Below, in pieces: positions 9,089-50,140 of a DNA stretch of 64,000 nucleotides. Within the stretch, counting starts at the first letter, position 1; each line of letters opens with the position of its first letter. The stretch lies in the NCBI GenBank assembly GCA_000182565.2, contig KQ257463.1; one strand, written 5' to 3'. The translations under genes and the position numbers were made by a program. The notes below the pieces were generated by a model. It was given only the letters and a program-made list of their open reading frames with translations. It was not told the DNA's origin and did no database searches. The stretch is from Spizellomyces punctatus DAOM BR117 (Eukaryota).

Positions 9089-9901
9089 CGGCTGTTCAAT
9101 ACCATCAAAGATAGTGCACAAGATCTGCACCGGCATTCCCATTTGCACTTCGCCATGTAAATGCAATAAATTTTCTTCAAGTCACTGCTGATCATCCTTG
9201 GAGGGTTCATGATGGGCTGCCAGTGCAAGGGCGCGTGTTACCCATCAGCCTAATATCCCATCACTTGAAGGACTCATCCCGCAACTGATGGGCGGGCACT
9301 AGTCCTACTTGTACTGCTGTGAAAGCCTGCACAAACATCCCTTTACAGAGCAACTGACCAAGGAAAGATCAATAGCGGGATCTCTTGCAATCCACTGAAC
9401 GCTACACGGAAATGTGTCGTTTCCCGCGCAATGTCAAAGTTGACCTTTATAATGTTTTATCCCAAAGCGGCCCGCTAAAAAGGTATCCCATATGGTACCA
9501 ATGTTTAGAGATCATGAACAAAGCTGCTCAGGCGAAGGCTGGCGGCATAATAAAGAAAAGCGCCTGCAATTTGACCAGTAACCCCGTCTATTTTCAATAC
9601 CACTGCACCAAAACACAGCACTATTTCACGATCGCCGCTTGTTATCCCACCCACCTGTATCTGAACCAAGTGGAAAACAACCGGTCAACCCATGTTATTA
9701 AGTGGTTTTGGTGGTAATAATAGCCGAACCTCTCATTGGCTGCACGTGATAGACACTGTCTGTCAAAACGAAAAAATGCTATTCATGATCGACGATTCGT
9801 AAGCAGATCTCACGAGCTTGCTTTCTCACTAATGTAAGACTTCGGCTTTTCCTTTTCTTTCTTGTTCTTCCCATTCTTCATTGCCAACTTTACGACTTGC
9901 C

Positions 9902-11717
9902 ATGGCCGCTACAGGAACCATCACTCATTACCTTACCGTAACGGGCAGAGAATACCTAGCGAATACTGGCATCGCTAGCAGCGAGCTAGCATCGGTTAAT
10001 TTTGACAGCGGGCTCTTTCCTTACGCCCGTGACAAGCTACGACGTCAAAAGAATTGGCGACAAGACGGCAATGTACATTTTGTATACCATGGGGCAACGT
10101 CCGGCGGCAGGCGTCCTTCTGCGGAGGATACAATTCTCGATCCTCCAACAACTGTCGATTTGACAGGAAAGCATCTGGCATTGTTCTCTGCCATACGGGA
10201 CCCGACTAGGAGACCCAACGAATGTTTCCTCTGCAGCAAGGAGATGAATCTGGTTGGATGGCATGGTATAACCATTTCATCTGTTTCATTATGTCAAATT
10301 GTCCATACGTCGTTTGACAGCGGATTTCAGCCTTTGACAGGATGCCAGTAATTCCAGCGCCACTCGCTCCCCAGGCGCCCACTATTGCTCAGGTTGAAGA
10401 GCCTTGTCTAAGCACAGCTGTAACACAGAGAGTACTCAATGCAGCTTGTGTGCTTACCGACATGCTTGTTCACCCCGTCGGAACGTACCAGGCCGCCAAA
10501 GACGTCATCGTGGATACGCTTCCTGTAGTCAAAGAAGTAGTAACATCCCCGATCAAGGTGGCGCAAGAGGCAACAAGCGACATTGCTGCCACCGCGGCAA
10601 GACTTAGTGGGCTGAGGATCAGTTCGAGGGAGCCTTGGGTATGACCGTGAATGACCGATTACGAATCCCAGAACTATCTTTTTTGATCCCACTTTTGTTA
10701 GGCTTTCTTGGATGACCTTGCCGAGGATACTGGTACAGAAGATCCAATCGAGTCAGATGAAGAAGAGGAAGAAGAAGAAGAAGAACAAAAAGACCAAGAA
10801 GAAGTAGAACAAGAGAAAGGTCCCACTATCGCCGGAGTTAGCGAGGAGTTACAGATTCAGTTTACAGAGCTTCTTAAGGCGCTCGACCGCCGTTTTGACA
10901 AAATCGATGACAAACTCGACCGTCGTTTTGCAAAAATCGACCGTCGTTTTGCGAAAATCGATAGGACTATGGGTGCCATGTTTGAATACGTTGGACGTGG
11001 GCAAGTTTTGGCTCATGTAAAAAGGATCTTCAACATTGATGAGACAGCTATTGTGGAAGGTATGAAACTCCAAGGACGGGAGTTTGCGAAGGAAGGTACA
11101 TATTTATCTATCAACATGTAATCTACCATTGAGAATTCAACGATAGTCTGGTGGGCATGCGCACAGAAAACGAACCCTCTTTTCGACGACTTTGGACTGC
11201 TCTAAGGCAAAATTATGAGACACAATGGACAAGAGATGCGATCCCTGTCAAGATGAAGCCTGCAAAGATTGAAATCAACTTTCTTTATTTTTGCTACCAT
11301 TCGGGAATCTCTGGCACCTCGATCGTGTCGCCACCCTGGGCTAGTCCTAAAGCGCCGCTCGATCAGGACTTCGAAGCATCGCGGTCTGCAACTGGTGTAG
11401 GAAAGATTATGTCGGCATTGGGATTTTCCGCACCCAACGCAATCTTAGTCGGAGAGATGACCATAAGCGGCCTCGAACTAAACAACAAAGCCACGAAAAG
11501 AAAACTAGGACAATTGGAGCGTGCAATCGTGTTTTTATGCACTCACTATTCGATCAAGCCTACCCGTATTTTCGCTTTCCTCCACACGCTTGGACGCTTG
11601 CGCGCCCCAGCACGGCAGTTTCGTGATGATTTATTTGGTCCGAATGGGTATGCACGATCATTTCCGATCCTTGCTCGGCTGGCCAGAGAAGAGAGATTTG
11701 TGATGGTGCCTGCATAA
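9902..11717 (+). CDS. Putative coiled-coil + PD-(D/E)XK (restriction-endonuclease-fold)-like protein, Crinkler-like architecture; last splice junction uncertain
   Basis: Exons 9902-10252, 10321-10638 and 10702-~11095 join in frame. Acidic tract and DRRF(A/D)KI heptads, then GAMFE..KIEINFL..ILVGEMT..KLGQLERAIVFL in the order of REase motifs I-IV. Confidence 0.5.
10882..10964 (+). repeat. Coding 21-bp tandem repeat (DRRF[A/D]KI heptads)
   Basis: GACCGYCGTTTTG..AAAATC occurs three times, plus partial copies. Confidence 0.9.
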
Positions 11718-13064
11718 AACAATTATGAGCTGCGTATGTCATATCAACCAAGCGGGACTGTTTGATTTTTGATTTCCCGTTCACCATTGTTCGTCCTGAC
11801 TACCGTATTCGGCATATGTACATCGTGATTTGCAGATATTGTCTGTGAAATATGGTCTGTTATAACAATGCATTGTCGCATGGTCGTATGAAATCGTAAA
11901 ATGTATCACAATACGTTAACTCGGCGTGCCCTGAAATACATGACTGTGCTGATACCATCCGTGTCGGAAATGCCCATTGCTTTCCCTGGCTTATTTTTCC
12001 GGTATCTGCTTATTTCAAGATATTATCTCATCGGTATTAATTAGTGCCTCCCAAGTTACAATCTTACAGCTGTTTGAAAAATACTTCCCGTATGTAGTAA
12101 AAAATAAAGACTTACCAGGGTATACACAACATATAGAGAAGTGCTTTCTTAGGATGAAAATAAGCTGCATCTTCTGTCAAGTGCCGTTGCACGCACGGAC
12201 TTGTACAAGTCGTATCGATGTATTCACCAGACAAGCGGTTCGAATGGATATATATGTGCAGGTGGGTGGGCAGACTAAATACTGGCCATATGTTAACTAG
12301 TGTGAACACATGCATGCAACGCATTTGAAAGAGACCTGAAAAATAAAGAAGATGAAGTTTATTATTCTTTATATCGTATGGAAGTATAGTTGAAATCGAA
12401 CCAGTGCTCAGCTTGTCCGATGAATACATTGATAGGAGTAGTACAACCCCTACAAGTCGTATCTATGACCATCTTTGCTCCTATAGTTAGGTATTTTGCA
12501 ATGGTTCCTTTAGCTCTACTTCTCGCATCGATGTTATTCACTCAGCGCACCCAGGCATTAACCAGTTTCGGTCAGTCGCCTAAGCGATGAGTGCTACCCA
12601 AACACATATAATTCAATGTTGTCCGGGGAATCCATCGATACGAGTTCTACATGCGCGTTCCTAATGCTGCCACGCATCTTTTATTCAGATTTTCGGTGGC
12701 CAAAACGGCGGGACGATACCCACCGGAACAGAATGCTTTCACAGCAGTAATTGAAGTAACGGAATCAAGATGACAGGCCCCCGACGGACGTTGCCCCGAT
12801 TGGAATTCTCCAGCCTTAAACCTGTGGAGGACACCCGTTTTGGGGGCAGCTTTCACATAATACAATATAAATGTGGTTGTCCAGCGTGTGGCGCAGCCGT
12901 TGATGATTCCGTAATGATAATGTGTTGCCATGCAACATGAAAACCAATCAACTGAGGTGGCGTATTTGCCGTCTATAAAAACGCGTCGCGTTCGCCTTTC
13001 CTCCCCCATCGTGTGTTGATCTCTTGAGGTAGGTTCTCGCACTGTAGACATCTTGAGTGAGAGT

Positions 13065-13559
13065 TGCATGCTGGGGCGCCGATAACGGAGGGTATCGTCG
13101 GGGTGGTCTTGTTCTTTCAGTGTGCATGCTGGGGCGCTGTTAACTGAGGGTATCGTCGGGGTGGTTTTGTCTTCTCGGTGTGCATGCTGGGGCGCTGTTA
13201 ACTGAGGGTATCGTCGGGGTGGTTTTGTCTTCTCGGTGTGCATGCTGGGGCGCTGTTAACTGAGGGTATCGTCGGTGCATATCATCAGATGTGCATGCTG
13301 AGGCGCTGTTAACTGAGGGTATCGTCCGTGCATATCATCAGATGTGCATGCTGAGGCGCTGTTAACTGAGGGTATCGTCCGTGCACATTGGAAAGTCGGG
13401 GCCATCTGCTGGGGCGCTGTTAACTGAGGGTATCGTCGGTGTACATTGGGAAGGTGGGGCCATCTGCTGGGGCGCTGTTAACTGAGGGTATCGTCGGTGT
13501 ACATTGGAAAGCTGGACCATCTGCTGGGGCGCCGTTAACGGAGGGTGTCGTCGGTGTAC
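13065..13559. repeat. Array of nine 33-bp conserved cores (TGCTGGGGCGCTGTTAACTGAGGGTATCGTCGG) with 20-25-bp variable spacers
   Basis: Cores start at 13069, 13127, 13185, 13243, 13296, 13349, 13407, 13465 and 13522 (periods 58,58,58,53,53,58,58,57). Spacers fall into three sequence families. Confidence 0.97.
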
Positions 13560-14178
13560 CTTTGACTTGGGGTGTCTCCTTTGCGCCTATTTAGCTTTTT
13601 GAGCTAACCCCATTTTTAAGTTCTTCGCAGGTTTTCAACAATCTCATCGGTGCGAGCCCCTCGGTACGATTCCTGGCATAGTGATGATTGTAGCTGTACT
13701 GTGTAGTTGTGATTCTTCCTATCTGTTTGTGTATCGCTGTAATATATCGCACATGTCTTGTGAACTCGCGTGTATGTCCCTTTGAGCATTCATCTTTTTG
13801 GTTAATGAACCATTTGGTGTCTAATCATGGCATGAGTTCCCGATTCCATGACAGCCATCGGGTCGCTACGCCAACGAATATTCACTTGGTTGCCCCATTG
13901 ATACACAATCCCTAATGATTCAGCCCTCCAGCCATCTACCAGTTGCTGGGCGCCAAGTTCGACACTGTTTACCCTGGACTTTGAAGGCCACGACTTGCTC
14001 CTATGTCTCTCTTAGCGGTAAGCGTATCTTCATCTCCAGCTCCGTGTTTGCAGTTTGCGTGCACATAATCGATACGGGGGTGATATGTGATGCTTGCCAT
14101 TCTTTTCCCTTTTTTAAACAACCAATCCGAATTCATGTTTTAACACAATTTTCTATTGCAAGCACCTGCAGCACAACG

Positions 14179-14249
14179 GCATTGGTGGTTTAGTGGTATA
14201 ATTACCGCCTGCCACGCGGTAGACCCGAGTTCGATTCTCGGCCAATGCA
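14179..14249 (+). tRNA. tRNA-Gly (GCC)
   Basis: Acceptor GCATTGG/CCAATGC-A, anticodon arm ACCGC-CTGCCAC-GCGGT, T-loop GTTCGATTC. Confidence 0.97.
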
Positions 14250-16210
14250 TAGTCGTTTCGTCAAAAATCTTTTGAATATTGGCAGTCTATCTGATCAACC
14301 AAAACAGGCAGGATTGGTTTATCTTTTTCGTTACTCTTGGCGAGTGGACCACGCACGTCTTGTTGTTTTTGATTTTAGCAATCCACCTGATCCACACGGA
14401 GGCGGGTTATCGTTTCTTTTTTTGTCCGCTCTCCTTGCTGGCATGCCGCCGCATGAGCTGTGTTTGGACTGCTCTAGCTTCTCGAAAAAGAGGTGTTGTA
14501 CCTGCGGATACAAGTGTACCAGCCTTTAACTTTTAGAGTTTCTCAAAGACTAGTCATTACTGTTGACGGGAGATTAGCCATACAACCGGATGAAGAGTTC
14601 ATGTCTCCCCCTTCGCCTTAATCTTTGGGCCCAAGGGTTAGGCTCGGCCACGACCGCTCTTGGCAAGGGTGACCGTGTCACGTGTATCTTGCCCGCCAGA
14701 GAGAGGACTTTTGATCAAGGGAAAGCCCATGGCCCATCCGTAGCAGGGAAAACGGCCATCGGAGGGCTCCTTTGGGTTTAGCTAACCCTTACTTTTAGAG
14801 TTTTTTGCTGTGGCTCTGGTGGTGTCCCCGGCCGAGTTGTCGGAGAAAATGAGCCATTACCCGGGTGGTGATACAAAGCCTCGACCTGGACTTTTTTCCG
14901 AACTGCGTGCGAATTCCTCAGGCGTAAAAAGAATTGTGCAAACGGAGCCTTTGTCTCCCCCCTGGGATGAAAAGAAGTGCAAGAATAAACTCTTTTCTTT
15001 GTTATTATATTGGAAATTATTATTAGAATTTAGAACTCCTGGTTATCTTGGTTTGTAGAGAATATTTCAAATTGGCGTGACGGCAGGAGGCGTGTTGTTC
15101 CAGACAAAGAGAAAGGCACGACGCACGTTCACACCAATTTTGACCGTTGAAAGTTGGAACGAGTGTGATCGCTAAAAAAAAGCAGCTGAACAAGGGAAAT
15201 AACCCCGTCCTACGAGACGATCAAAAAGCTGAGGGGGATGATGATGGATAAACAAAACCCACACGCGGTGCCCAATGGAAGCCTCGTGCTTTTGGGCCCA
15301 ACAGTACTCACAACTCCTTGAAAAACAACAGCACTTTGGATCAATGAACGGACCACCCCCGGGTTTTACCCAGCCAGTTATAACGGTGGCGAAGCGGGAA
15401 CTTGGTAAATCTGGCATAATTTGGACAGGTTGCCAAGCACGGTGACCTCATTCCGGCGTGACTATGCCGCCAATGTTCCTTTGTTTAATTTGAGAAATTC
15501 AGTGGCTACGTGACTGTCGGAGATTCCAAGCGTTCCAAACGAACCGAGCCTAGTTTCAATTTGCGCTCCACAGTCTTGGAAGGCCTGTCGCTCGGGTCCG
15601 CGTTTGCTTCTTTCGCCATCATCCCCCCCCTCCTCAACCTGCGCCTTGAACTGTTAGGTTTTCGTCGTCGACACACGTCAGCGCAAAGCTTGTAAAGACT
15701 GCTTTTCGTGCCGTATGTCAGGTAAGATACGCTTTTCCCGTTCCTTTAGGCCCTGGACGGGAAACGGCGCGCTATGTCTCCTTCTGTCGGAGTAATCGGA
15801 GGATTTGGGGCGAATTTTATCAAAAACGCACAGAAAGTCAGTTGGGAGAACTGGACAGCGTGCTTTTCAGCGCAGCGGTGAATTCTCCCGCGTATACTGC
15901 AGAGCAGGACTGTCTGGCAACGCACCATTGCTGCTTGGGAGAGGATCCGAAAAAAAAAAAAAAGAGAAGCGGTCCAGTACAGAGCGTCAGGGACGACGCT
16001 TGTTAGAGAACACTCTCTGGTGCGCTAATCCCGTAACGTTTAACATATCTTAAAGGCGTCTGCCACTATTATTTCATGATGTATGTCGACATCTCACCGT
16101 TCTTGCTCCCTGGTACTCTTACCTACTTAGCTGCGACATACGCTCAACACTGGAAAGTCGTTATCCTCTTCAATTCGCAAGACCCACAACAATTGTGATA
16201 CACCAAAGAG

Positions 16211-17965
16211 ATGACGGAACGCGAGCAATTTCAGCAAAGTCCAGCTTGGCATCAGTATAATCCTCAAGCCCTGCCCCCAACTCCGCCTTCTGTCCATCTC
16301 CCCGGGGGTCAGCACATTTCGTCCGCCAATAGTCCGATGGTCGCCTATGGTGGTCCGATGGGGCTACCGCCTGGATATCCGTTCCCACCGATGCATCCGT
16401 ACGGATACCCGGGACAACCTACAGGACTTCCTCCAGGATTACCGATGATGCAAATGCCGGGAGGTCCTCTCGTCCATCCTGGACAAATGCTTGGACCTCA
16501 AATGAGACCAATGGCACCACCACCAAATGTCCCGCAAGGGACTATTATATATATCCCGGATGGCTACATGCCACTTTTATACCCCGAAGGCCAAAATGGA
16601 CCACCAATGGGAGGTCCATCGTCCGCCGAACATGGACAGATGCATCCCGGGGCGCTTCTCAGTCCAGTGATGGGCCCTGCGCCCGGCAAGATGCTCCAAC
16701 CACAAATGATGGGAGGTGTAGGGCAGGGTGGGCTTCCTATGGGGGGAATGGGTTATCACGTACCACGCGGAAGTCAACATCCTCCTTATCCGTCGGCCAC
16801 ATCGATCCTTCAACCAACGGGCTCCCACAGCCTACCGATACCTGCATCCGGAAGCATGAACATTCCCACAAATCCTCGACCAACTTACCATTCTAGTCCT
16901 GCCCTGCACCAACAACGTCCACACAATCCAGGAAACCTTGCAATCAATACCAATGTCTCTAACCGAGCAAGGAGTCCTCGGCTAAGCAGTGCCGATACCG
17001 CCACACCCAACACTGCTGCTAGCGGAAACTCACCTACTCGCAGCAGTCATAGCAGCTCGTTTCGAAGTCCAACCAGAACTGCGGCCGTTAAAGCCAAAGG
17101 GGCGAAACGGCCGGCAAATTCGTGGATTTTGTACCGACAAGAAAAGCATCCCATCGTGTTAGCGGAACACGAGGGAATCACGAATAACGAAATCTCCAAA
17201 ATCGTAGCAGAGATGTGGAAGGCCGAACCAGAGCACATTAAGAATATTTACAAAACACGTGCTGAAGAGGAGCGTCGGCGTCACCGACTTTTGCATCCAG
17301 ACTACAAGTACGCACCAAGAAAAAACAAGCCAAAGAGACGAAAGCGAAAGCCGAATAGCGCCAGCCACCATCAGCCATATCATCAACGGGAGGGAAGTGG
17401 TGAAGCGACATCGCCAACGGACCCATCCTCTGCATCCGATGCTTGGCCGTCACCTACAAAAGACATTCCAAATAAATTTGGAGCACGGCCGTACATGCCT
17501 GAGCGGCCGGGAGCAGAACATATCCAATCTTGGGTAGACTCTGAAGGGTCTGATTCCGGTGATGGTCCATCTCCAGTCAGTCCTCGGGGCTCCTTTGAAT
17601 TTAATCGATTCTGGGAGCATCCGGTCGACCCACACCACCAGCCACAGCAGGAACAACTACCACCACCGCAACACCAACCACAGCCACATCGCCCACCCAA
17701 TCAGATGCCACCGCCTCCGCAAATGCAACCAGGACACGAGCACTACATTTATGATGGGCCCGTGGTATATCACCAAGATTTGTTCAATGGATCGGACTTT
17801 ACGTTTGAGGCTCTCGGGTTTCCCATCGTAGCGGATGATTCTATAGATGCGGAAGGATCTGATGCAGGGGATCTCAGTATTGAGGACTTGATGCTAGCAG
17901 ATGACGCAGCAAAACCCAAAAAAGAAGGGACGGATAATAATGTGGGACCATCTCCTCAAGGGTGA
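16211..17965 (+). CDS. Sequence-specific single HMG-box transcription factor (MATA_HMG/SOX-type) with Pro/Gly/Met/Gln-rich N-terminus and acidic tail
   Basis: KRPANSWILYRQEKHPIV..ITNNEISKIVAEMWKAE..YKTRAEEERRRHRLLHPDYKYAPRK followed by a basic tail. 584-aa uninterrupted ORF. Confidence 0.93.
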   Translation: MTEREQFQQSPAWHQYNPQALPPTPPSVHLPGGQHISSANSPMVAYGGPMGLPPGYPFPPMHPYGYPGQPTGLPPGLPMMQMPGGPLVHPGQMLGPQMRPMAPPPNVPQGTIIYIPDGYMPLLYPEGQNGPPMGGPSSAEHGQMHPGALLSPVMGPAPGKMLQPQMMGGVGQGGLPMGGMGYHVPRGSQHPPYPSATSILQPTGSHSLPIPASGSMNIPTNPRPTYHSSPALHQQRPHNPGNLAINTNVSNRARSPRLSSADTATPNTAASGNSPTRSSHSSSFRSPTRTAAVKAKGAKRPANSWILYRQEKHPIVLAEHEGITNNEISKIVAEMWKAEPEHIKNIYKTRAEEERRRHRLLHPDYKYAPRKNKPKRRKRKPNSASHHQPYHQREGSGEATSPTDPSSASDAWPSPTKDIPNKFGARPYMPERPGAEHIQSWVDSEGSDSGDGPSPVSPRGSFEFNRFWEHPVDPHHQPQQEQLPPPQHQPQPHRPPNQMPPPPQMQPGHEHYIYDGPVVYHQDLFNGSDFTFEALGFPIVADDSIDAEGSDAGDLSIEDLMLADDAAKPKKEGTDNNVGPSPQG

Positions 17966-20238: not shown

Positions 20239-20309
20239 GCCAAGGTAGTATAGTGGCAGTACACTGCGTTGTGGCCGCAATGACCCCGGTTCGATTCCGG
20301 GCCTTGGCA
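20239..20309 (+). tRNA. tRNA-His (GTG)
   Basis: Acceptor GCCAAGG/CCTTGGC-A, anticodon loop TTGTGGC, T-loop GGTTCGATTCC, downstream T-runs. One C-A mismatch at the top of the anticodon stem. Confidence 0.93.
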
Positions 20310-37898: not shown

Positions 37899-38531
37899 AA
37901 CAGCAAAGGTTAGGTTTGGCCGCAAAGTAACAGACGAGGATTCTGAACGCTGTATACCATTGTATTTTGCTGTTGCTGCCATTTTCTGCCGGCTGTTTCC
38001 AGTCTGGGTCAAAAAACTGTTGTGAAAGTACTTGGGAGCTGTTTTGAAGAAGCGTTGTTGCTTCTGGACGAGAAGACGCGTGTGGGGTAAGCACCCGCTA
38101 AGCCACATGCATCTCCTGCCACCATTTTTGGGGGATTTTGGAGACAGTTGACCTCATATCATCCAAGGCTGTTCGTCGTTATTATGTCCATGACTCTTCT
38201 TACAGGCGCTATAGTCTATCATAGTATCAAACCTCGAGAAGGAAGCGTAACAAAAGGCACAGCTACCGTTGTCGTCGTTCTTGTCAGTGATCCGTGTGTA
38301 TATGCGAGTGAGAAGAGATTCATGGTCAAGTCAGTGGAGACCTACGAGCTTTATAGCTCTATCAACTAGGCTCGTTTATCCTCTCTGATATCCTCAAGGA
38401 GGTCCGAACTAGCACATCGTCCACACTTACACTATGATTATGTAAGAACCTGAATTGTTTTTGCTGGAGGCTTAGCTTTGAGGTTTCATTTTTGAAAAGT
38501 TGGTGATCTTCATTTAACTACTGGATATATC

Positions 38532-41422
38532 ATGTCTACCGATGTGCAAAAGAAAAAGGCCAAGCGGGGAAAGCGAGGGGGTAAGCGGGCCAAGGAACGA
38601 GGACTAGCGGAGGAGAATAGACCTCTGACAGCAGAGAATGGAATTGCTGAAGAGACTGGTGAGCAAGAGGTATCAGAACGGCCACCAATTGAAATACCCA
38701 CCGAAACATCAACAACGGAGGGACAGCTTCCCGGAAAGAAGAAAACGAGACGTGGGAGAAGGGGGAAAGCAGCGGTTGAGGCTGAAGCGACTGGTGTAAA
38801 CGCAGTGGGGATTGGCTCTGGACGCACAGATGCTGAACAAGCCGCTTGGGAGAACTGGGAATCTGATAAACCTTCGAAACCTGCCTTGCAAAATCAGCCC
38901 TTTTTCGGACACCTCTCTCCCGATGAACAAATGTACTTTCTTACCCTTGAACCTCGTCTCGATTCGCCTTTCGAAACTGCCGAAGACCAGACGTTGTTTG
39001 TTCAAGCAATGTATCGCGAACTCGACGGGAAGGAGCTCATTGTAGCTTCGTCACCGGAGTGTTCCATGGTGCTCGAAAAGCTCTTGAAACTCTCCGATGA
39101 TTTTCGTCTTCGCATCTTTTTTGATCGACTAAATGGACGATTTGGGGACTTGTTCAGGCATCAATTTGGATCACATGTTATACAGGCGCTTTTGGGAATT
39201 GCTGCTGATGTTATTGAGAGGGAATGTCAGGGCGAGTCGAACGTTGATCTGGATGAGGTGGATCCAGAGCTCGTGAAGGAGCTACCGACCATGGTGGATT
39301 TGGTCTTGGCCTTGTGTGAACAAGGTGAGGGGCACTGGGCCGAGTGGATGGTCGACCCCTATGCGTCCCATCTTGTTAGAACGGTATTATGTGTCCTGGC
39401 GGGGAAGGGAGAGATCGATTTGAGGAGCAAAAAATCAAAAAAGTACAACGAAGAGCACAACAATGTCAACCTCGCTCGCACTCAAGGTCGGCCGACGACA
39501 AAGCCAAAAAAACAGCGGGTCGTTCCCGAATCCTTTGGTGAAATGTTACGTCAGATTTCTCAGGATATCGTATCCAGTCTGTCTGGTCCCGAACTACGCA
39601 ACTATGCGCAGGACCCTGTTGCAAACCCTGTTATCCAACTCCTCTTATCCTTCCCACACGCCAGCGAGCCGCTGATCACTGCATTATTAAATATCCCAGA
39701 CGCAAGCACTAGCACACTATCGCACGACGATTTCATCGAATCACTCATCAAGTCCCAAGTCGGATCCCACCTGTTCGAGAAACTACTAGCAACATCACCA
39801 CCCCATCTTTTCCACCAGCTCTACATCACGTATTTCCGTGGCAAACTTCAAGAGTTGTGTCTCCACCCAGTAGCAAATTTCGTTGTGCNNNNNNNNNNNN
39901 NNNNNNNNNNNNNNNNNNNNNNNNNNNNNNNNNNNNNNNNNNNNNNNNNNNNNNNNNNNNNNNNNNNNNNNNNNNNNNNNNNNNNNNNNNNNNNNNNNNN
40001 NNNNNNNNNNNNNNNNNNNNNNNNNNNNNNNNNNNNNNNNNNNNNNNNNNNNNNNNNNNNNNNNNNNNNNNNNNNNNNNNNNNNNNNNNNNNNNNNNNNN
40101 NNNNNNNNNNNNNNNNNNNNNNNNNNNNNNNNNNNNNNNNNNNNNNNNNNNNNNNNNNNNNNNNNNNNNNNNNNNNNNNNNNNNNNNNNNNNNNNNNNNN
40201 NNNNNNNNNNNNNNNNNNNNNNNNNNNNNNNNNNNNNNNNNNNNNNNNNNNNNNNNNNNNNNNNNNNNNNNNNNNNNNNNNNNNNNNNNNNNNNNNNNNN
40301 NNNNNNNNNNNNNNNNNNNNNNNNNNNNNNNNNNNNNNNNNNNNNNNGCCTGCGTGTGTTATTATCCTGTATCCCTATCAGCTTCATGGCCCCTACCTGT
40401 AGAGACAACTATTCGGTGGTCCCAAGATGCGGTCGCTTCTCATCTCCTAGAAACTCTTCTCATAACCCCAACACTAAATACGAAAGCTAAACGAAAGCTT
40501 ATCCGCGGCTGGCTCGGAAGCTTTGCTCCTATGGCTTGCAATAAGTATGGCTCCCATGTCGTTGACAAATGCTGGGCAGTGGCGGATCTAGCATTGAAAG
40601 AGAAGATGGCGGAGGAACTCGTTAAGAGTTTTGATCGACTCCGCAACGACCATTTCGGACGATTTGTGGCACGAAATTGCAAATTGGAGAACTTTAAGAG
40701 GAGACGAGAAGAGTGGGTTGAGCGGTTGGCTGGGGTTGAAAAGAAAAAGGATATGTTTGGGGAGTTTTTCGACGATGCAGACAAACAAGGAAAGAGGGTG
40801 GTTGCAAGTGAGCAAGGGCCAGTCGATGGGACAGAAGGGGAATCGAAAGAAGTTGAGGATCCTCTTTGGACTACTCATATCTTTGATGAGGGTATGGCGG
40901 CGCTAGGGTTCGCAAATAGGACGGCTGAGAGCTTGAGGAAGGGAACAGACGACAATGTGAAGAAAGATAAGAAGAAGAAAAAGAAAGTTTCTAGCGCTGT
41001 AAAGGATTTCGAAAATGTTGAGAAGGTACGGTGTTGACTTATTGCTGATGTTCTTGGGTTAGGAGATCAGTTGCTCATATGCGATCGTTCGTGCAAACGT
41101 ATAGATGGCGTTGGACGATGAACAAGACGACGTCACAATGGAAGAGACATCTACTGATGTGACCAAGGAAAGCCGAGATGAAATTGAAAACTTGTTCAAA
41201 AAGACGAAGAAAAGAAAGCGTGGAGAAGTTGTGTCTGATGTGGTAGATGACGAGGCCGTAGAGAATGACGAGGATCAAAACATACCGGTACTCAAAACCG
41301 TTGAAAGGGATTTGGCCGGCGTCTTAGATGCCATTTCAGCGACAAAACGTAAGAAGAGCAAGTCCAAAAAGGCTGGTGCAGATGAAAAAGGGGAGAAGAA
41401 GAAGCGGAAATTTGAGGGATAG
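38532..41422 (+). CDS. NOP9: Nucleolar protein 9 (Pumilio-like repeats), interrupted by assembly gap
   Basis: FFGHL...EQMYF, GKELIVASSPECSMVLEKLL, FGSHVIQ, YASHLVR, VGSHLFE, HPVANFVV, YGSHVVDKCW, FGRFVARNCKLENFKRRREEW. Confidence 0.92.
39889..40347. other. Assembly gap (459 N)
   Basis: Run of N inside the NOP9 coding region. Confidence 1.
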
Positions 41423-46795: not shown

Positions 46796-46866
46796 GCATT
46801 GGTGGTTTAGTGGTATAATTACCGCCTGCCACGCGGTAGACCCGAGTTCGATTCTCGGCCAATGCA
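46796..46866 (+). tRNA. tRNA-Gly (GCC), identical to the copy at 14179
   Basis: Same 71-nt sequence with unrelated flanks and downstream T-runs. Confidence 0.97.
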
Positions 46867-47497
46867 CAGGTTCTTTTGGGTCTAATGTTTTTTGCTCCGT
46901 TGCCCTGCCGCCTAGACGACCCTATCACCGGACACAGTACAACATTGCAAATGATATTTCATCCTCTCGTCGGTTACTCAAATTTTCCAATCTCTCCAAC
47001 CTAGTCATCATTGAATAACTGGCTTTAACCGCATACTTTACTCTCTCCCCATTTGACGTTTACAGTCGTAGATCAACACTATGGCTATCCTTGAGAAATT
47101 CCACAATGTGATAGCTCTTGCCCAAGTGACTCTCAACGGTCGACACAATCCCCGTTACAAAACAGGAAGGTGAGTTATTGAGAACAGAAAGTTTCCTTTC
47201 GCAAGAAGAAGTATTGCAAACCGCAAAAATACTGGCAAACATACATAACATTTCTTCCCAGACGAGAATGTTTAAAAGTTGTAGTTCACCATTGGATATG
47301 CAGAACCCGTAGAATTTGGATGGTTCATGGAGGACCTATACCTCGACAGTAATATAGTAGATGACCTTGTCATTCACCCAGGAACAAAAAAAAACAACGA
47401 ATGTACGAAATGTTACAGCTGCCGGGTCCTGTTTGAATGTTGGTCAGGGGGGGATGCTATCCAACATGAGACGGGTACAAAAAATCTATTTTTGCGA

Positions 47498-47571
47498 TGC
47501 CTCCTCCGAGATTCGAACACGGGACCTTCTGCTTACTAGGCAGACGCTCTAACCAACTGAGCCAAGGAGGC
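47498..47571 (-). tRNA. tRNA-Thr (AGT)
   Basis: Minus strand GCCTCCT..AGGAGGC-A, anticodon arm TCTGC-CTAGTAA-GCAGA, T-loop TTCGAAT with one T-T mismatch in the T-stem, downstream T6. Confidence 0.93.
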
Positions 47572-48090: not shown

Positions 48091-48244
48091 GATGTCAAAT
48101 ACATTTATCTAATGTAACAAATTCGTAACCTTTACTCCTCAGTTGTCAAATACGTTTATCTAATGTAACAAATTCGTAACCTTTACCTCCTCAGATGTCA
48201 AATACATTTATCTACTGTAACAAATTGGTAACCTTTGCTCCTCA
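48091..48244. repeat. Three tandem 51-52-bp copies of the deacetylase gene 3' end
   Basis: Units at 48091-48141, 48142-48193 and 48194-48244. The third contains the last codons and the stop of the CDS. Confidence 0.95.
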
Positions 48245-49697
48245 CGTAGTCGACCACCATTTTAGTCAACATTACATTGTACGGAGTGCTGCTATGCTGT
48301 AAGCTAACGTGTCCATCGGTTGCCACATTTGCATTGTCTAAATTATACTTGAAAGTGGCAAAGCTCGAATAGACGTCTTTCAACAGAAACCAATCGTAAG
48401 AGTCGATGTTTTCAGAAAAATTGATGTACCCGAGATCTTTCAGAGTTTTGTCCACTTCTGCATTCGTCGCCGAATGGGGAGGACGCATAATCTTAGGTTT
48501 CGGAAGGCCAAGTTTTGAAAGAGAATCTTCGATACTGATCATTTCGGAGACTACTTGAGTTTGGTTCAAACTCGTCAACCAAGGATGTGTGTAGGTGTGA
48601 CTTGCGATTAAGTGACCATCGGAAGCTATCCGTCTCGATACGTTTGGATAAATATCCACCCCGACCGGAGATCCATCGAAAAAACTGGTCGCGTTGCCGT
48701 TTACAAAAAACGTTGCCATTACTTTTTGAGAAGATAGATAATCTAAAAGCGAGCTCGTATACTTTGAGGGCGCATCGTCGAAGGTCAAGGCAAATAATCC
48801 CGGCTTGCAGATCGTATACTTCGTAGCATAATTGTTGTTGTTGTCCACAAGGTTGACGCTCGCTTTTGCAGTCACCACACTGCCGAGCTGGAAATACCCG
48901 TCCAATGATAAACCGTTCGCAGGTAGAGGTAGTGGATATTTCAACGCTACTTGTACTTTTTGTGTACTGTTGGATCCGTTGACCGTTTTGACTACTGTGC
49001 CGACGACTTTTCCGCTGTAGAGAGCTCGAATGTGTATTTGCCGAGTGATGTTTGTCCATACGTTTACTTGAAACCGATGAACACCGGTGTTTGACAGATA
49101 CTTCGGGAATGAACTGGTGTTTATACATCCTCGTGAATAATCAGCACAGGCTCCCCACTGAGTAGAGCTGACCAAAGTGACGTTTCCGACAGTAAATTTG
49201 ACTCCGGCCGGTAAATTCCATAAAACCACAGCGTACAAGCCATGGTTTAAGGAACTAGTCCAACGGGTCAACGGAAGAGTGTAGGTTTTGAGAACGTTTG
49301 TTACTGACAACGTCGTGTCAAGTTTGATTCGGGTGTCGCACAAGGTTGCAGGGGGAGGTTCGATAGCAATGCCTTTCGAAAGGTGTAAGCCAATCGTAAT
49401 ATTTGATAGAGGAGAACTAGACTTGATGTCGATTTTGATGGCCGAGATCTGACGAGCATCGTGACAACCCGTCAAGGAATACCAGTAAGAATCGGCATTG
49501 GCGCGTTGTAAAGTCAGGTTGCTCAAGAGACCGTTTGAGGCGGGTAAGTTGATTTTCATTGTGCCGTCATCACTGGTGTCTTGCCCTAAAAGGTTCGCCC
49601 CGTCCAAATATCGAGAAGGGTCTGAGAAGTCCTCTAGAACCATGTCGCCAAATGCGACATGATAAAGAAACGGCAAAACAATTAAAGAGAGCTTCAT
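48198..49697 (-). CDS. Secreted CE4 (NodB) polysaccharide/chitin deacetylase with long N-terminal beta-rich modules; intronless
   Basis: Signal peptide MKLSLIVLPFLYHVAFG. CE4 motifs ALTFDDAP, ATFFVNG, ASHTYTHP, MRPPH, DSYDW, SLQHS, KGYQFVTV. Confidence 0.92.
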   Translation of the reverse strand: MKLSLIVLPFLYHVAFGDMVLEDFSDPSRYLDGANLLGQDTSDDGTMKINLPASNGLLSNLTLQRANADSYWYSLTGCHDARQISAIKIDIKSSSPLSNITIGLHLSKGIAIEPPPATLCDTRIKLDTTLSVTNVLKTYTLPLTRWTSSLNHGLYAVVLWNLPAGVKFTVGNVTLVSSTQWGACADYSRGCINTSSFPKYLSNTGVHRFQVNVWTNITRQIHIRALYSGKVVGTVVKTVNGSNSTQKVQVALKYPLPLPANGLSLDGYFQLGSVVTAKASVNLVDNNNNYATKYTICKPGLFALTFDDAPSKYTSSLLDYLSSQKVMATFFVNGNATSFFDGSPVGVDIYPNVSRRIASDGHLIASHTYTHPWLTSLNQTQVVSEMISIEDSLSKLGLPKPKIMRPPHSATNAEVDKTLKDLGYINFSENIDSYDWFLLKDVYSSFATFKYNLDNANVATDGHVSLQHSSTPYNVMLTKMVVDYVRSKGYQFVTVDKCI

Positions 49698-50140
49698 TTT
49701 TGAGAAGATTGTGCAGTCTGAAGGAGTACATTACTACATGTCAGTCTTATACTTCGGAGCGCCATAACATTTACACATGGTATTATTCGGGTCGAGATTT
49801 TCCAGATTTTCTAGACACGAACGACTCAGCCCACCCGTGCACTACGATATCTTCTTTGTCTACGATCAATGGATGACCGCTTGTGGCTGCTCCGGTCATC
49901 GCCGTTTTCTCCACGTGCTGCTTGATAAGAAGCACATTGTCTGGTTATTGGGATTTGAAGATTACATTGTCTAATGGAGGCCTGGAACTTCTCCTGCGTC
50001 GACATTTTCTTTCCTAATACGCTGTTTAGATTAGAGACATTGGGTAATTCTGGAACAATCAACGGCATGTTTGGATTCTACGCATTTCTATTCATAGCTT
50101 TTTAAATTAAAACAATGTGCGGCACTCTTCTTGACAAGGA

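Follow-up and report, generated by a model that had tools for sequence, protein, structure and literature searches.

Introduction

To our knowledge, long non-coding RNAs (lncRNAs) built from repeat modules have been studied extensively in mammals, whereas very few are known from early-diverging fungi. One such module is repeat A of Xist, which consists of 7.5–9 copies of a well-conserved GC-rich core with variable spacers, is situated towards the 5′ end of an RNA that is polyadenylated and non-coding, and is proposed to form inter-repeat helices (PMC12101419). The locus reported here resembles repeat A in having nine copies that start within ~50 nt of the apparent 5′ end of the RNA, but the two have no sequence relation, our array has three discrete spacer families instead of T-rich linkers, and it is found in a chytrid fungus, in an RNA of only ~0.75 kb.

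Like a CRISPR array, the locus alternates a constant repeat with short segments of similar length; unlike one, it lies in a eukaryotic host, its spacers are duplicated in blocks, it comes without cas genes or viral spacer matches, and it has a TATA box of Pol II type and an RNA with a poly(A) tail. With complex minisatellites it shares head-to-tail, non-coding units of 53–58 bp (within the ~10–100 bp of such repeats) that occur as variants, blocks of identical variants, diverged edges and a bias of G over C. It departs from them in that 33 nt of the unit stay identical from block to block while the other 20–25 nt cannot be aligned, and in that the array lies wholly inside a discrete polyadenylated transcript. 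Tandem repeats in LTRs or at transposon ends are comparable because their copies differ in repeat number and a promoter lies near a poly(A) signal, but here we detected neither element ends nor target duplications nor transposon genes, and the copy number appears to be about two.

The array lies in Spizellomyces punctatus DAOM BR117, a genetically tractable fungus, within a 64,000-nt stretch of contig KQ257463.1 (assembly GCA_000182565.2) that we call the window and to which all positions refer. A preliminary description of this DNA called the array CRISPR-like and proposed that its core is under selection, as a processing signal for small RNAs or as a protein-binding site. In the Spizellomyces literature on tandem repeats and on polyadenylated non-coding RNA, searched by titles and abstracts, we found no description of the repeat or of the RNA; new here are the + strand expression of the array, its poly(A) site and a probable second expressed copy with two units. 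The analysis removes a false lead, that of a CRISPR-like system in a fungus, and brings to light an expressed, so far unannotated non-coding gene that consists mostly of tandem repeat. We read the locus, with a probability of roughly 55%, as a mosaic minisatellite within a short non-coding Pol II transcript, the constancy of its core reflecting recent amplification; the functional readings, taken together, hold a sizeable minority share.

Results

Architecture of the array

The array occupies 13065–13559, where TRF returns a period of 58 with 87–92% matches and scores of 382–413. Its 33-nt core is found nine times within the 64-kb window, always on the + strand, with starts at 13069, 13127, 13185, 13243, 13296, 13349, 13407, 13465 and 13522 (span 13069–13554); five copies carry no mismatch, two carry 2 and two carry 3, and core matches appeared in 0 of 100 dinucleotide shuffles. 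This agrees with the nine near-invariant cores of the preliminary description, and cutting the array at the cores likewise returned its 20–25-bp spacers, its three spacer families in ordered blocks of 3, 2 and 3, and its periods of 58, 53 and 57, the unit lengths being, in order, 58, 58, 58, 53, 53, 58, 58 and 57. The units are as follows.

13069..13242, + strand: units 1–3, core plus family-1 spacer (25 nt), period 58
13243..13348, + strand: units 4–5, core plus family-2 spacer (20 nt), period 53; core 5 with G6A and G32C
13349..13521, + strand: units 6–8, core plus family-3 spacer (24–25 nt), periods 58, 58 and 57
13522..13580, + strand: unit 9, edge-variant core (3 mismatches; T12C and T19G as in core 1) plus degenerate tail

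Cores 2, 3, 4, 7 and 8 are identical, and G6A and G32C are common to cores 5 and 6. As noticed earlier, the terminal cores 1 and 9 share the same deviations, T12C and T19G, with 2 differences between the two of them and 3 between each and the canonical core. Among the spacers, those of units 2 and 3 are identical while that of unit 1 has 4 differences, the two family-2 spacers are identical, family 3 has 6 variable columns, and unit 9 is followed by a tail that begins like family 3. Unit 1, with 3 mismatches in its core and 4 differences in its spacer, is an older edge variant. Tandem arrays whose interior turns over usually have diverged edge units, and this array fits that picture: cores 1 and 9 have two changes in common and stand apart from the seven cores between them. 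Identical or near-identical units inside the blocks (2 = 3, 4 = 5) fit recent local duplication.

The spacer families are related weakly or not at all. The alignment of family 2 with family 1 is weak (z = 3.0; the score was reached by 11/500 shuffles), as is that of family 3 with the unit-9 tail (z = 2.25; 22/500 shuffles), whereas family 3 against families 1 and 2 gave no alignment beyond chance. The cores beside family-1 and family-3 spacers are nevertheless identical at 33/33 positions although those spacers cannot be aligned. Identical cores beside unalignable spacers do not arise from point mutation; explaining them takes replacement or indel events in the spacers, conversion of short tracts in the cores, or selection on the core. 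The array is biased in base composition, with 185 G vs 95 C (skew 0.32).

A profile of the core run over the 64-kb window with nhmmer returned only the nine copies, the next match being 12712–12721 on the − strand with E = 2.2; because this is so poor, a 14-nt inverted match to the core (I7) is attributed to chance. The spacers do not recur elsewhere in the window at ≤3 mismatches. Inside the array the longest pieces placed measure 55–84 nt, apart from a 730-nt contig placed from 13478 on; the array is not bridged by any single read or contig, and the count of nine units is that of the assembled sequence. The window holds a second minisatellite at 48091–48244 (51 bp × 3.0 copies, 91% matches), located at the 3′ edge of a polysaccharide deacetylase frame (48198–49730, − strand).

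The array lies within a polyadenylated non-coding RNA

The segment 11400–14400 was covered with one RNA run (X16) and one ChIP DNA run, under the same species label, plus two contig sets. First mates make up 806 of the 820 placed reads of X16. Over an upstream + strand gene (ORF 11133–11717) the depth of first mates on the + strand climbs to 47 at 11804–11904, and because depth thus peaks at the 3′ end of that gene, the library is 3′-biased with a sense first mate. Around the array, − strand depth is at most 0.33 in all bins between 12915 and 13924, and the + strand depths in X16 are:

12915–13015: 0.66
13016–13116: 16.1
13117–13217: 3.06
13218–13318: 5
13319–13419: 3.2
13420–13520: 24.6
13521–13621: 16
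13622–13722: 134.7
13723–13823: 12.5
13824–13924: 0

Ten reads carry a loose A-run behind 13764 with an agreement of 0.96, and since the genome has no A-run there, these tails are not templated. The array is accordingly contained in a + strand polyadenylated RNA of at most ~750 nt without a credible coding frame, of which it makes up about two thirds (~0.75 kb in total). The 5′ end is resolved to a 100-nt bin and the 3′ end lies at ~13764. The features of this transcription unit are:

12974..12981, + strand: TATA-like box TATAAAAA, a sequence feature ~40–90 nt upstream of the start of + strand RNA coverage
13016..13764, + strand: unspliced polyadenylated RNA, apparently non-coding, with the entire array inside it
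13741..13764, + strand: AATATA and poly(A) site, the addition site lying ~18–23 nt downstream of AATATA at 13741

The TATAAA at 12974 is a putative promoter element, closely preceded by a CCAAT and a further AACTGAGG 8-mer (12943–12957). RNA polymerase II probably transcribes the locus from this box, with a start between ~13000 and 13069. As in repeat-module lncRNAs, then, the repeat sits within a polyadenylated non-coding transcript, with Pol II as its likely polymerase. The RNA reads thereby answer the question of transcription raised in the preliminary description: the array is transcribed, from the + strand only, and into a polyadenylated RNA.

Two other transcript models were considered. 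An intron from a GT at ~13029 to a CAG at 13630 was rejected because no joint was found in the RNA reads, though coverage is thin; X16 lists no splice joint over the transcript, at a depth of 3–25× in the array. A short RNA starting at 13619 or 13636 was also rejected, as neither is a site where many molecules begin: the loose ends there (19 and 43 reads) agree at only 0.52 and 0.44 and in part look like the sequence that the window itself has upstream; they are compatible with an origin in the diverged second copy described below.

The earlier statement that no ORF spans the array is correct for both strands. On the + strand the core has stops in 2/3 frames, and on the − strand there are only overlapping stop-to-stop frames of 63–202 aa. 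Between 13000 and 13764 the + strand has no ATG ORF of ≥10 aa except a 33-aa one at 13684, which crosses the poly(A) site. A 74-aa − strand frame had 0 relatives at E up to 0.001 among 1.84 billion representatives, and the 202-aa frame matched no Pfam family. A decayed coding repeat is ruled out by the lack of an open frame, the lack of a protein relative of the 74-aa frame and the restriction of RNA to the + strand in X16.

A probable second expressed copy

At six positions of the array, a letter other than that of the window is common in RNA reads and rare or absent in ChIP DNA reads: 13077 (18/33 RNA vs 0/69 ChIP), 13093 (18/22 vs 0/57), 13454 (18/24 vs 3/63), 13455 (18/24 vs 4/61), 13459 (18/23 vs 2/60) and 13468 (12/16 vs 1/55). 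In addition, 19 RNA reads that fit from 13069 on have a family-3-like spacer ahead in place of the window's upstream sequence, and in 25 RNA reads that fit from 13415 on the preceding sequence is unlike all three families. A 317-nt X1 contig contains a variant unit (76 letters aligned, 9 different) followed by 241 letters unlike the window; other X1 contigs are exact matches to the window. These reads and the contig are most simply explained by a further two-core locus, or a divergent two-core allele, akin to the 3′ end of the array. The core thus probably exists in at least one other place in the genome. Judged from position 13454, where 18 RNA reads represent the second copy vs 6 the array locus, the second copy is more strongly expressed in that sample.

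Divergence between the two loci is similar in core and spacer: the second-copy core departs from core 1 at ~3/33 positions, and the second-copy spacer departs from spacer 7 by 3 listed differences and an indel. In X7, contigs inside the array have word depths of 33–102, compared with 34.5 for a unique 2-kb contig. This argues for a low copy number, apparently about two, and against a dispersed high-copy family.

Several features would suit a piece of a low-copy mobile element (a solo LTR, for example, or a non-autonomous element that has tandem repeats inside it) carrying its own promoter and poly(A) signal: there are two or more copies, which are expressed and vary in unit number; the poly(A) site lies within ~0.8 kb of the TATA box; and a multi-copy inverted-repeat element (12195–12658) is found just upstream. 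Yet there were 0 candidates for TG..CA ends with a 5–6-bp target duplication, and none of the 30 candidate 7–9-bp flanking duplications had terminal inverted repeats matching at more than 6/12. No other copy is present in the 64-kb window and no transposon proteins are encoded nearby; together with the low X7 word depths, this makes a mobile element very unlikely.

We instead favour the mosaic minisatellite, which may have arisen as follows. The array would have started as a short copy, resembling the two-unit one elsewhere in the genome, and grown when replication slippage or unequal exchange locally duplicated three interior unit variants (×3, ×2, ×3). The two edge units would have retained an older core variant, and the interior cores would be near-identical through recent duplication and homogenisation. 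The spacer families may derive from indel or replacement events and not from acquisition of foreign DNA, family 2 looking as if it had been shortened from family 1.

Possible constraint on the core and folding of the RNA

Parsimony on the interior units counted 2 changes at 231 core sites vs 7 at 165 spacer sites (Fisher p = 0.038), and in the family-3 block alone 2 changes at 99 core sites vs 7 at 75 spacer sites (p = 0.040); the events are few and the units are not independent. A constraint on the core is thus weakly suggested. The proposal that the core is selected rests on this one weak test (p = 0.04) and is countered by the second copy, in which the core has diverged about as much as the spacer. 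That proposal had been set against an untranscribed array, a core confined to this place and spacers that align with each other as ordinary diverged units; we found a transcribed array, a core that also occurs elsewhere, and a family 3 that cannot be aligned with families 1 and 2.

Folded as a consensus with their 6-nt flanks, the nine cores reach −6.39 kcal/mol with 0 compensatory pairs. Seven core-centred segments folded with z-scores of −0.45, −0.70, −2.52, −0.18, +0.54, +0.24 and +1.01; the segment at −2.52 is the one between two family-2 spacers, and the others are no better than shuffles. No hairpin conserved across units appeared in the consensus fold or in the segment folds. As a whole, the + strand of the array folds more stably than its shuffles (z = −3.07, 0/100 shuffles) while the − strand does not (z = +1.62). 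The whole-array fold carries little weight because a G/U-rich repeat with GCATGC, GTTAAC and TGTACA palindromes would behave in this way.

At the gathering score, Rfam reported only 4 tRNAs within the window, and at E up to 10 it reported nothing in the array and 3 weak matches outside it within 12800–14000. Neither a covariance-model match nor a conserved unit hairpin pointed to a known small-RNA or ribozyme family (snoRNA, miRNA, hammerhead), and inspection by eye gave no consistent match to a telomerase-RNA template or to C/D snoRNA boxes. These results bear on the idea that the transcript is a precursor of unit-length small RNAs with the core as a candidate processing signal. All units have the same orientation on one transcript, as such a precursor would need, and the family-2 spacer itself forms a 7–8-bp hairpin or imperfect palindrome; but no hairpin is common to the units, no compensatory pair was seen, and the array has no Rfam match even at E up to 10. 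We consider such a precursor highly improbable, and the processing role first proposed for the core drew support from neither a unit-level hairpin nor a known RNA family.

A different functional reading is that the locus belongs to a small lncRNA family in which each RNA core binds one copy of the same protein, as a scaffold or sponge in the manner of Xist repeat A, and in which selection would keep the core while the linkers are free to vary. The array is transcribed, polyadenylated and non-coding, its core is constant beside unalignable spacers and changes less than they do (p = 0.04), and a second expressed copy exists; the 25 reads diverging before 13415 show yet another type of upstream sequence ahead of a core. 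The whole-array fold (z = −3.07) also recalls the inter-repeat helices proposed for Xist repeat A (PMC12101419). On the other hand, core and spacer have diverged to the same degree from one locus to the other, no unit structure is conserved, and a low z is expected anyway for a G/U-rich repeat with short palindromes. On balance this module reading is unlikely, though not far-fetched. If the repeat does have a function, the nine cores in the RNA might form a multivalent platform for a sequence-specific protein, which we put forward tentatively. Should the core prove to be such a protein-recruiting module, the locus would be the fungal equivalent of those animal lncRNA modules that combine a repeated core with linkers. 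A broader version, somewhat more doubtful, is that the core is the working module of a small, chytrid-specific family of short polyadenylated non-coding RNAs, with two or more loci of 2 and 9 cores, kept under selection and bound by one protein per copy on RNA or DNA, so that the number of units would set the dose. The importance of the locus would be greater if the core proves conserved across Spizellomycetales.

Predicted protein-binding sites in the DNA

All nine cores hold YAACKG (TAACTG or TAACGG), which we take to be the Myb consensus. The array might accordingly act as DNA, as a set of predicted protein-binding sites in a promoter-proximal or enhancer-like region whose RNA is a by-product of regulatory activity. 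The T/G change of the edge cores stays within YAACKG, the motif sits in a near-palindrome around GTTAAC, and one more AACTGAGG is found at 12950, 24 nt upstream of the TATA box. ChIP depth is highest over the array, at 34–57 per strand vs 14–19 in 12410–12914, but this peak, from a library of unspecified target, gives nothing firm, since the second copy may add part of the reads. A 6-mer with two degenerate positions is in any case weak evidence, and outside the array the AACTGAGG 8-mer occurs no more often than chance predicts (4 matches vs a mean of 3.98 expected). The array also lies downstream of the apparent transcription start, and no protein-coding gene follows before the tRNA-Gly at 14179. 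We regard this DNA-level reading as quite unlikely. One AACTGAGG 8-mer, on the − strand, falls in the minisatellite at 48091–48244, probably by chance.

The resemblance to CRISPR and database searches

A constant 33-nt repeat with 20–25 nt of intervening DNA is what a CRISPR-type adaptive array would look like, and the likeness is limited to this repeat-spacer look. The host is eukaryotic: the first 456 residues of the NOP9 encoded in the window are 93% identical to the NOP9 of Spizellomyces sp. 'palustris', in keeping with the fungal origin given in the preliminary description. The window NOP9 is also 39–51% identical to proteins of 7 further named chytrids, and the weakest of the 10 listed matches are a chytrid (39%, 63% of the query) and a basidiomycete yeast (28%). 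Besides NOP9 the window encodes other proteins of eukaryotic housekeeping or fungal type, with an HMG box, a polysaccharide deacetylase, TCP-1, a mitochondrial carrier and Utp13.

The spacers are duplicated rather than unique, as had been observed before, with families present 3, 2 and 3 times. The core and the three spacer families had 0 exact matches in viral contigs, in a search for exact matches that would miss diverged relatives, so the suggested comparison with viral sequences gave no support. The core had 0 matches in the genomes of 185,579 prokaryotic species. No cas domain is found near the array: a Pfam scan of 27 of the 33 stop-to-stop frames of ≥170 aa detected no cas family, the 6 frames left out overlapping other frames or the N-run, and the earlier remark that no cas gene is present therefore holds for the 27 frames scanned. 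There is no hairpin in the repeat either. As far as these searches reach, a true CRISPR array is refuted by the host, the duplicated spacers, the lack of exact viral matches and the lack of a cas domain in the frames scanned; its probability is vanishingly small, and the CRISPR framing is to be dropped.

Metagenome contigs gave 0 matches to a strict core pattern. A loose pattern matched 21 loci, one match each and no arrays; their context is bacterial-looking GGTAACCGAGGG, and only 1–6/10 letters outside the pattern agree. By their sequence, these 21 matches look like chance.

Neighbourhood of the array

Just upstream of the array, 12195–12658 is a multi-copy element with nested inverted repeats of 36–40 nt (80–83%), in which 12195–12234 and 12201–12236 pair with 12411–12446 and 12619–12658. 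Here DNA reads have mixed letters at about half frequency (e.g., 12376 G>C in 30/57 ChIP reads), RNA is found on both strands (12.3 on the − strand at 12309–12409), and contigs of two runs break or continue unlike the window. It is probably a MITE-like or other dispersed repeat. Further upstream, the + strand gene (frames 9833–11717) has no Pfam family; it encodes an acidic E-run (AGA × 20 at 10755–10814, within 10702–11121) and contains a 21-nt coding repeat at 10912–10961 that gives RRFAKID twice.

The NOP9-like gene (38496–40490) is interrupted by a 459-base N-run at 39889–40347, an assembly gap that produces spurious long frames around it in all six phases; the assembly is therefore a draft. 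The tRNA genes of the window are two tRNA-Gly(GCC) at 14179–14249 and 46796–46867, both on the + strand and 98.6% identical over 74 nt, a tRNA-His at 20239–20309 and a tRNA-Thr at 47498–47571 on the − strand. The poly(A) site of the repeat RNA precedes the first tRNA-Gly by ~415 nt. At 16199–17965, 2.4 kb downstream of the repeat RNA, a 588-aa open frame, a possible transcription factor, encodes one HMG box (E = 4.4e-20) with long proline-/glutamine-rich low-complexity regions on both sides.
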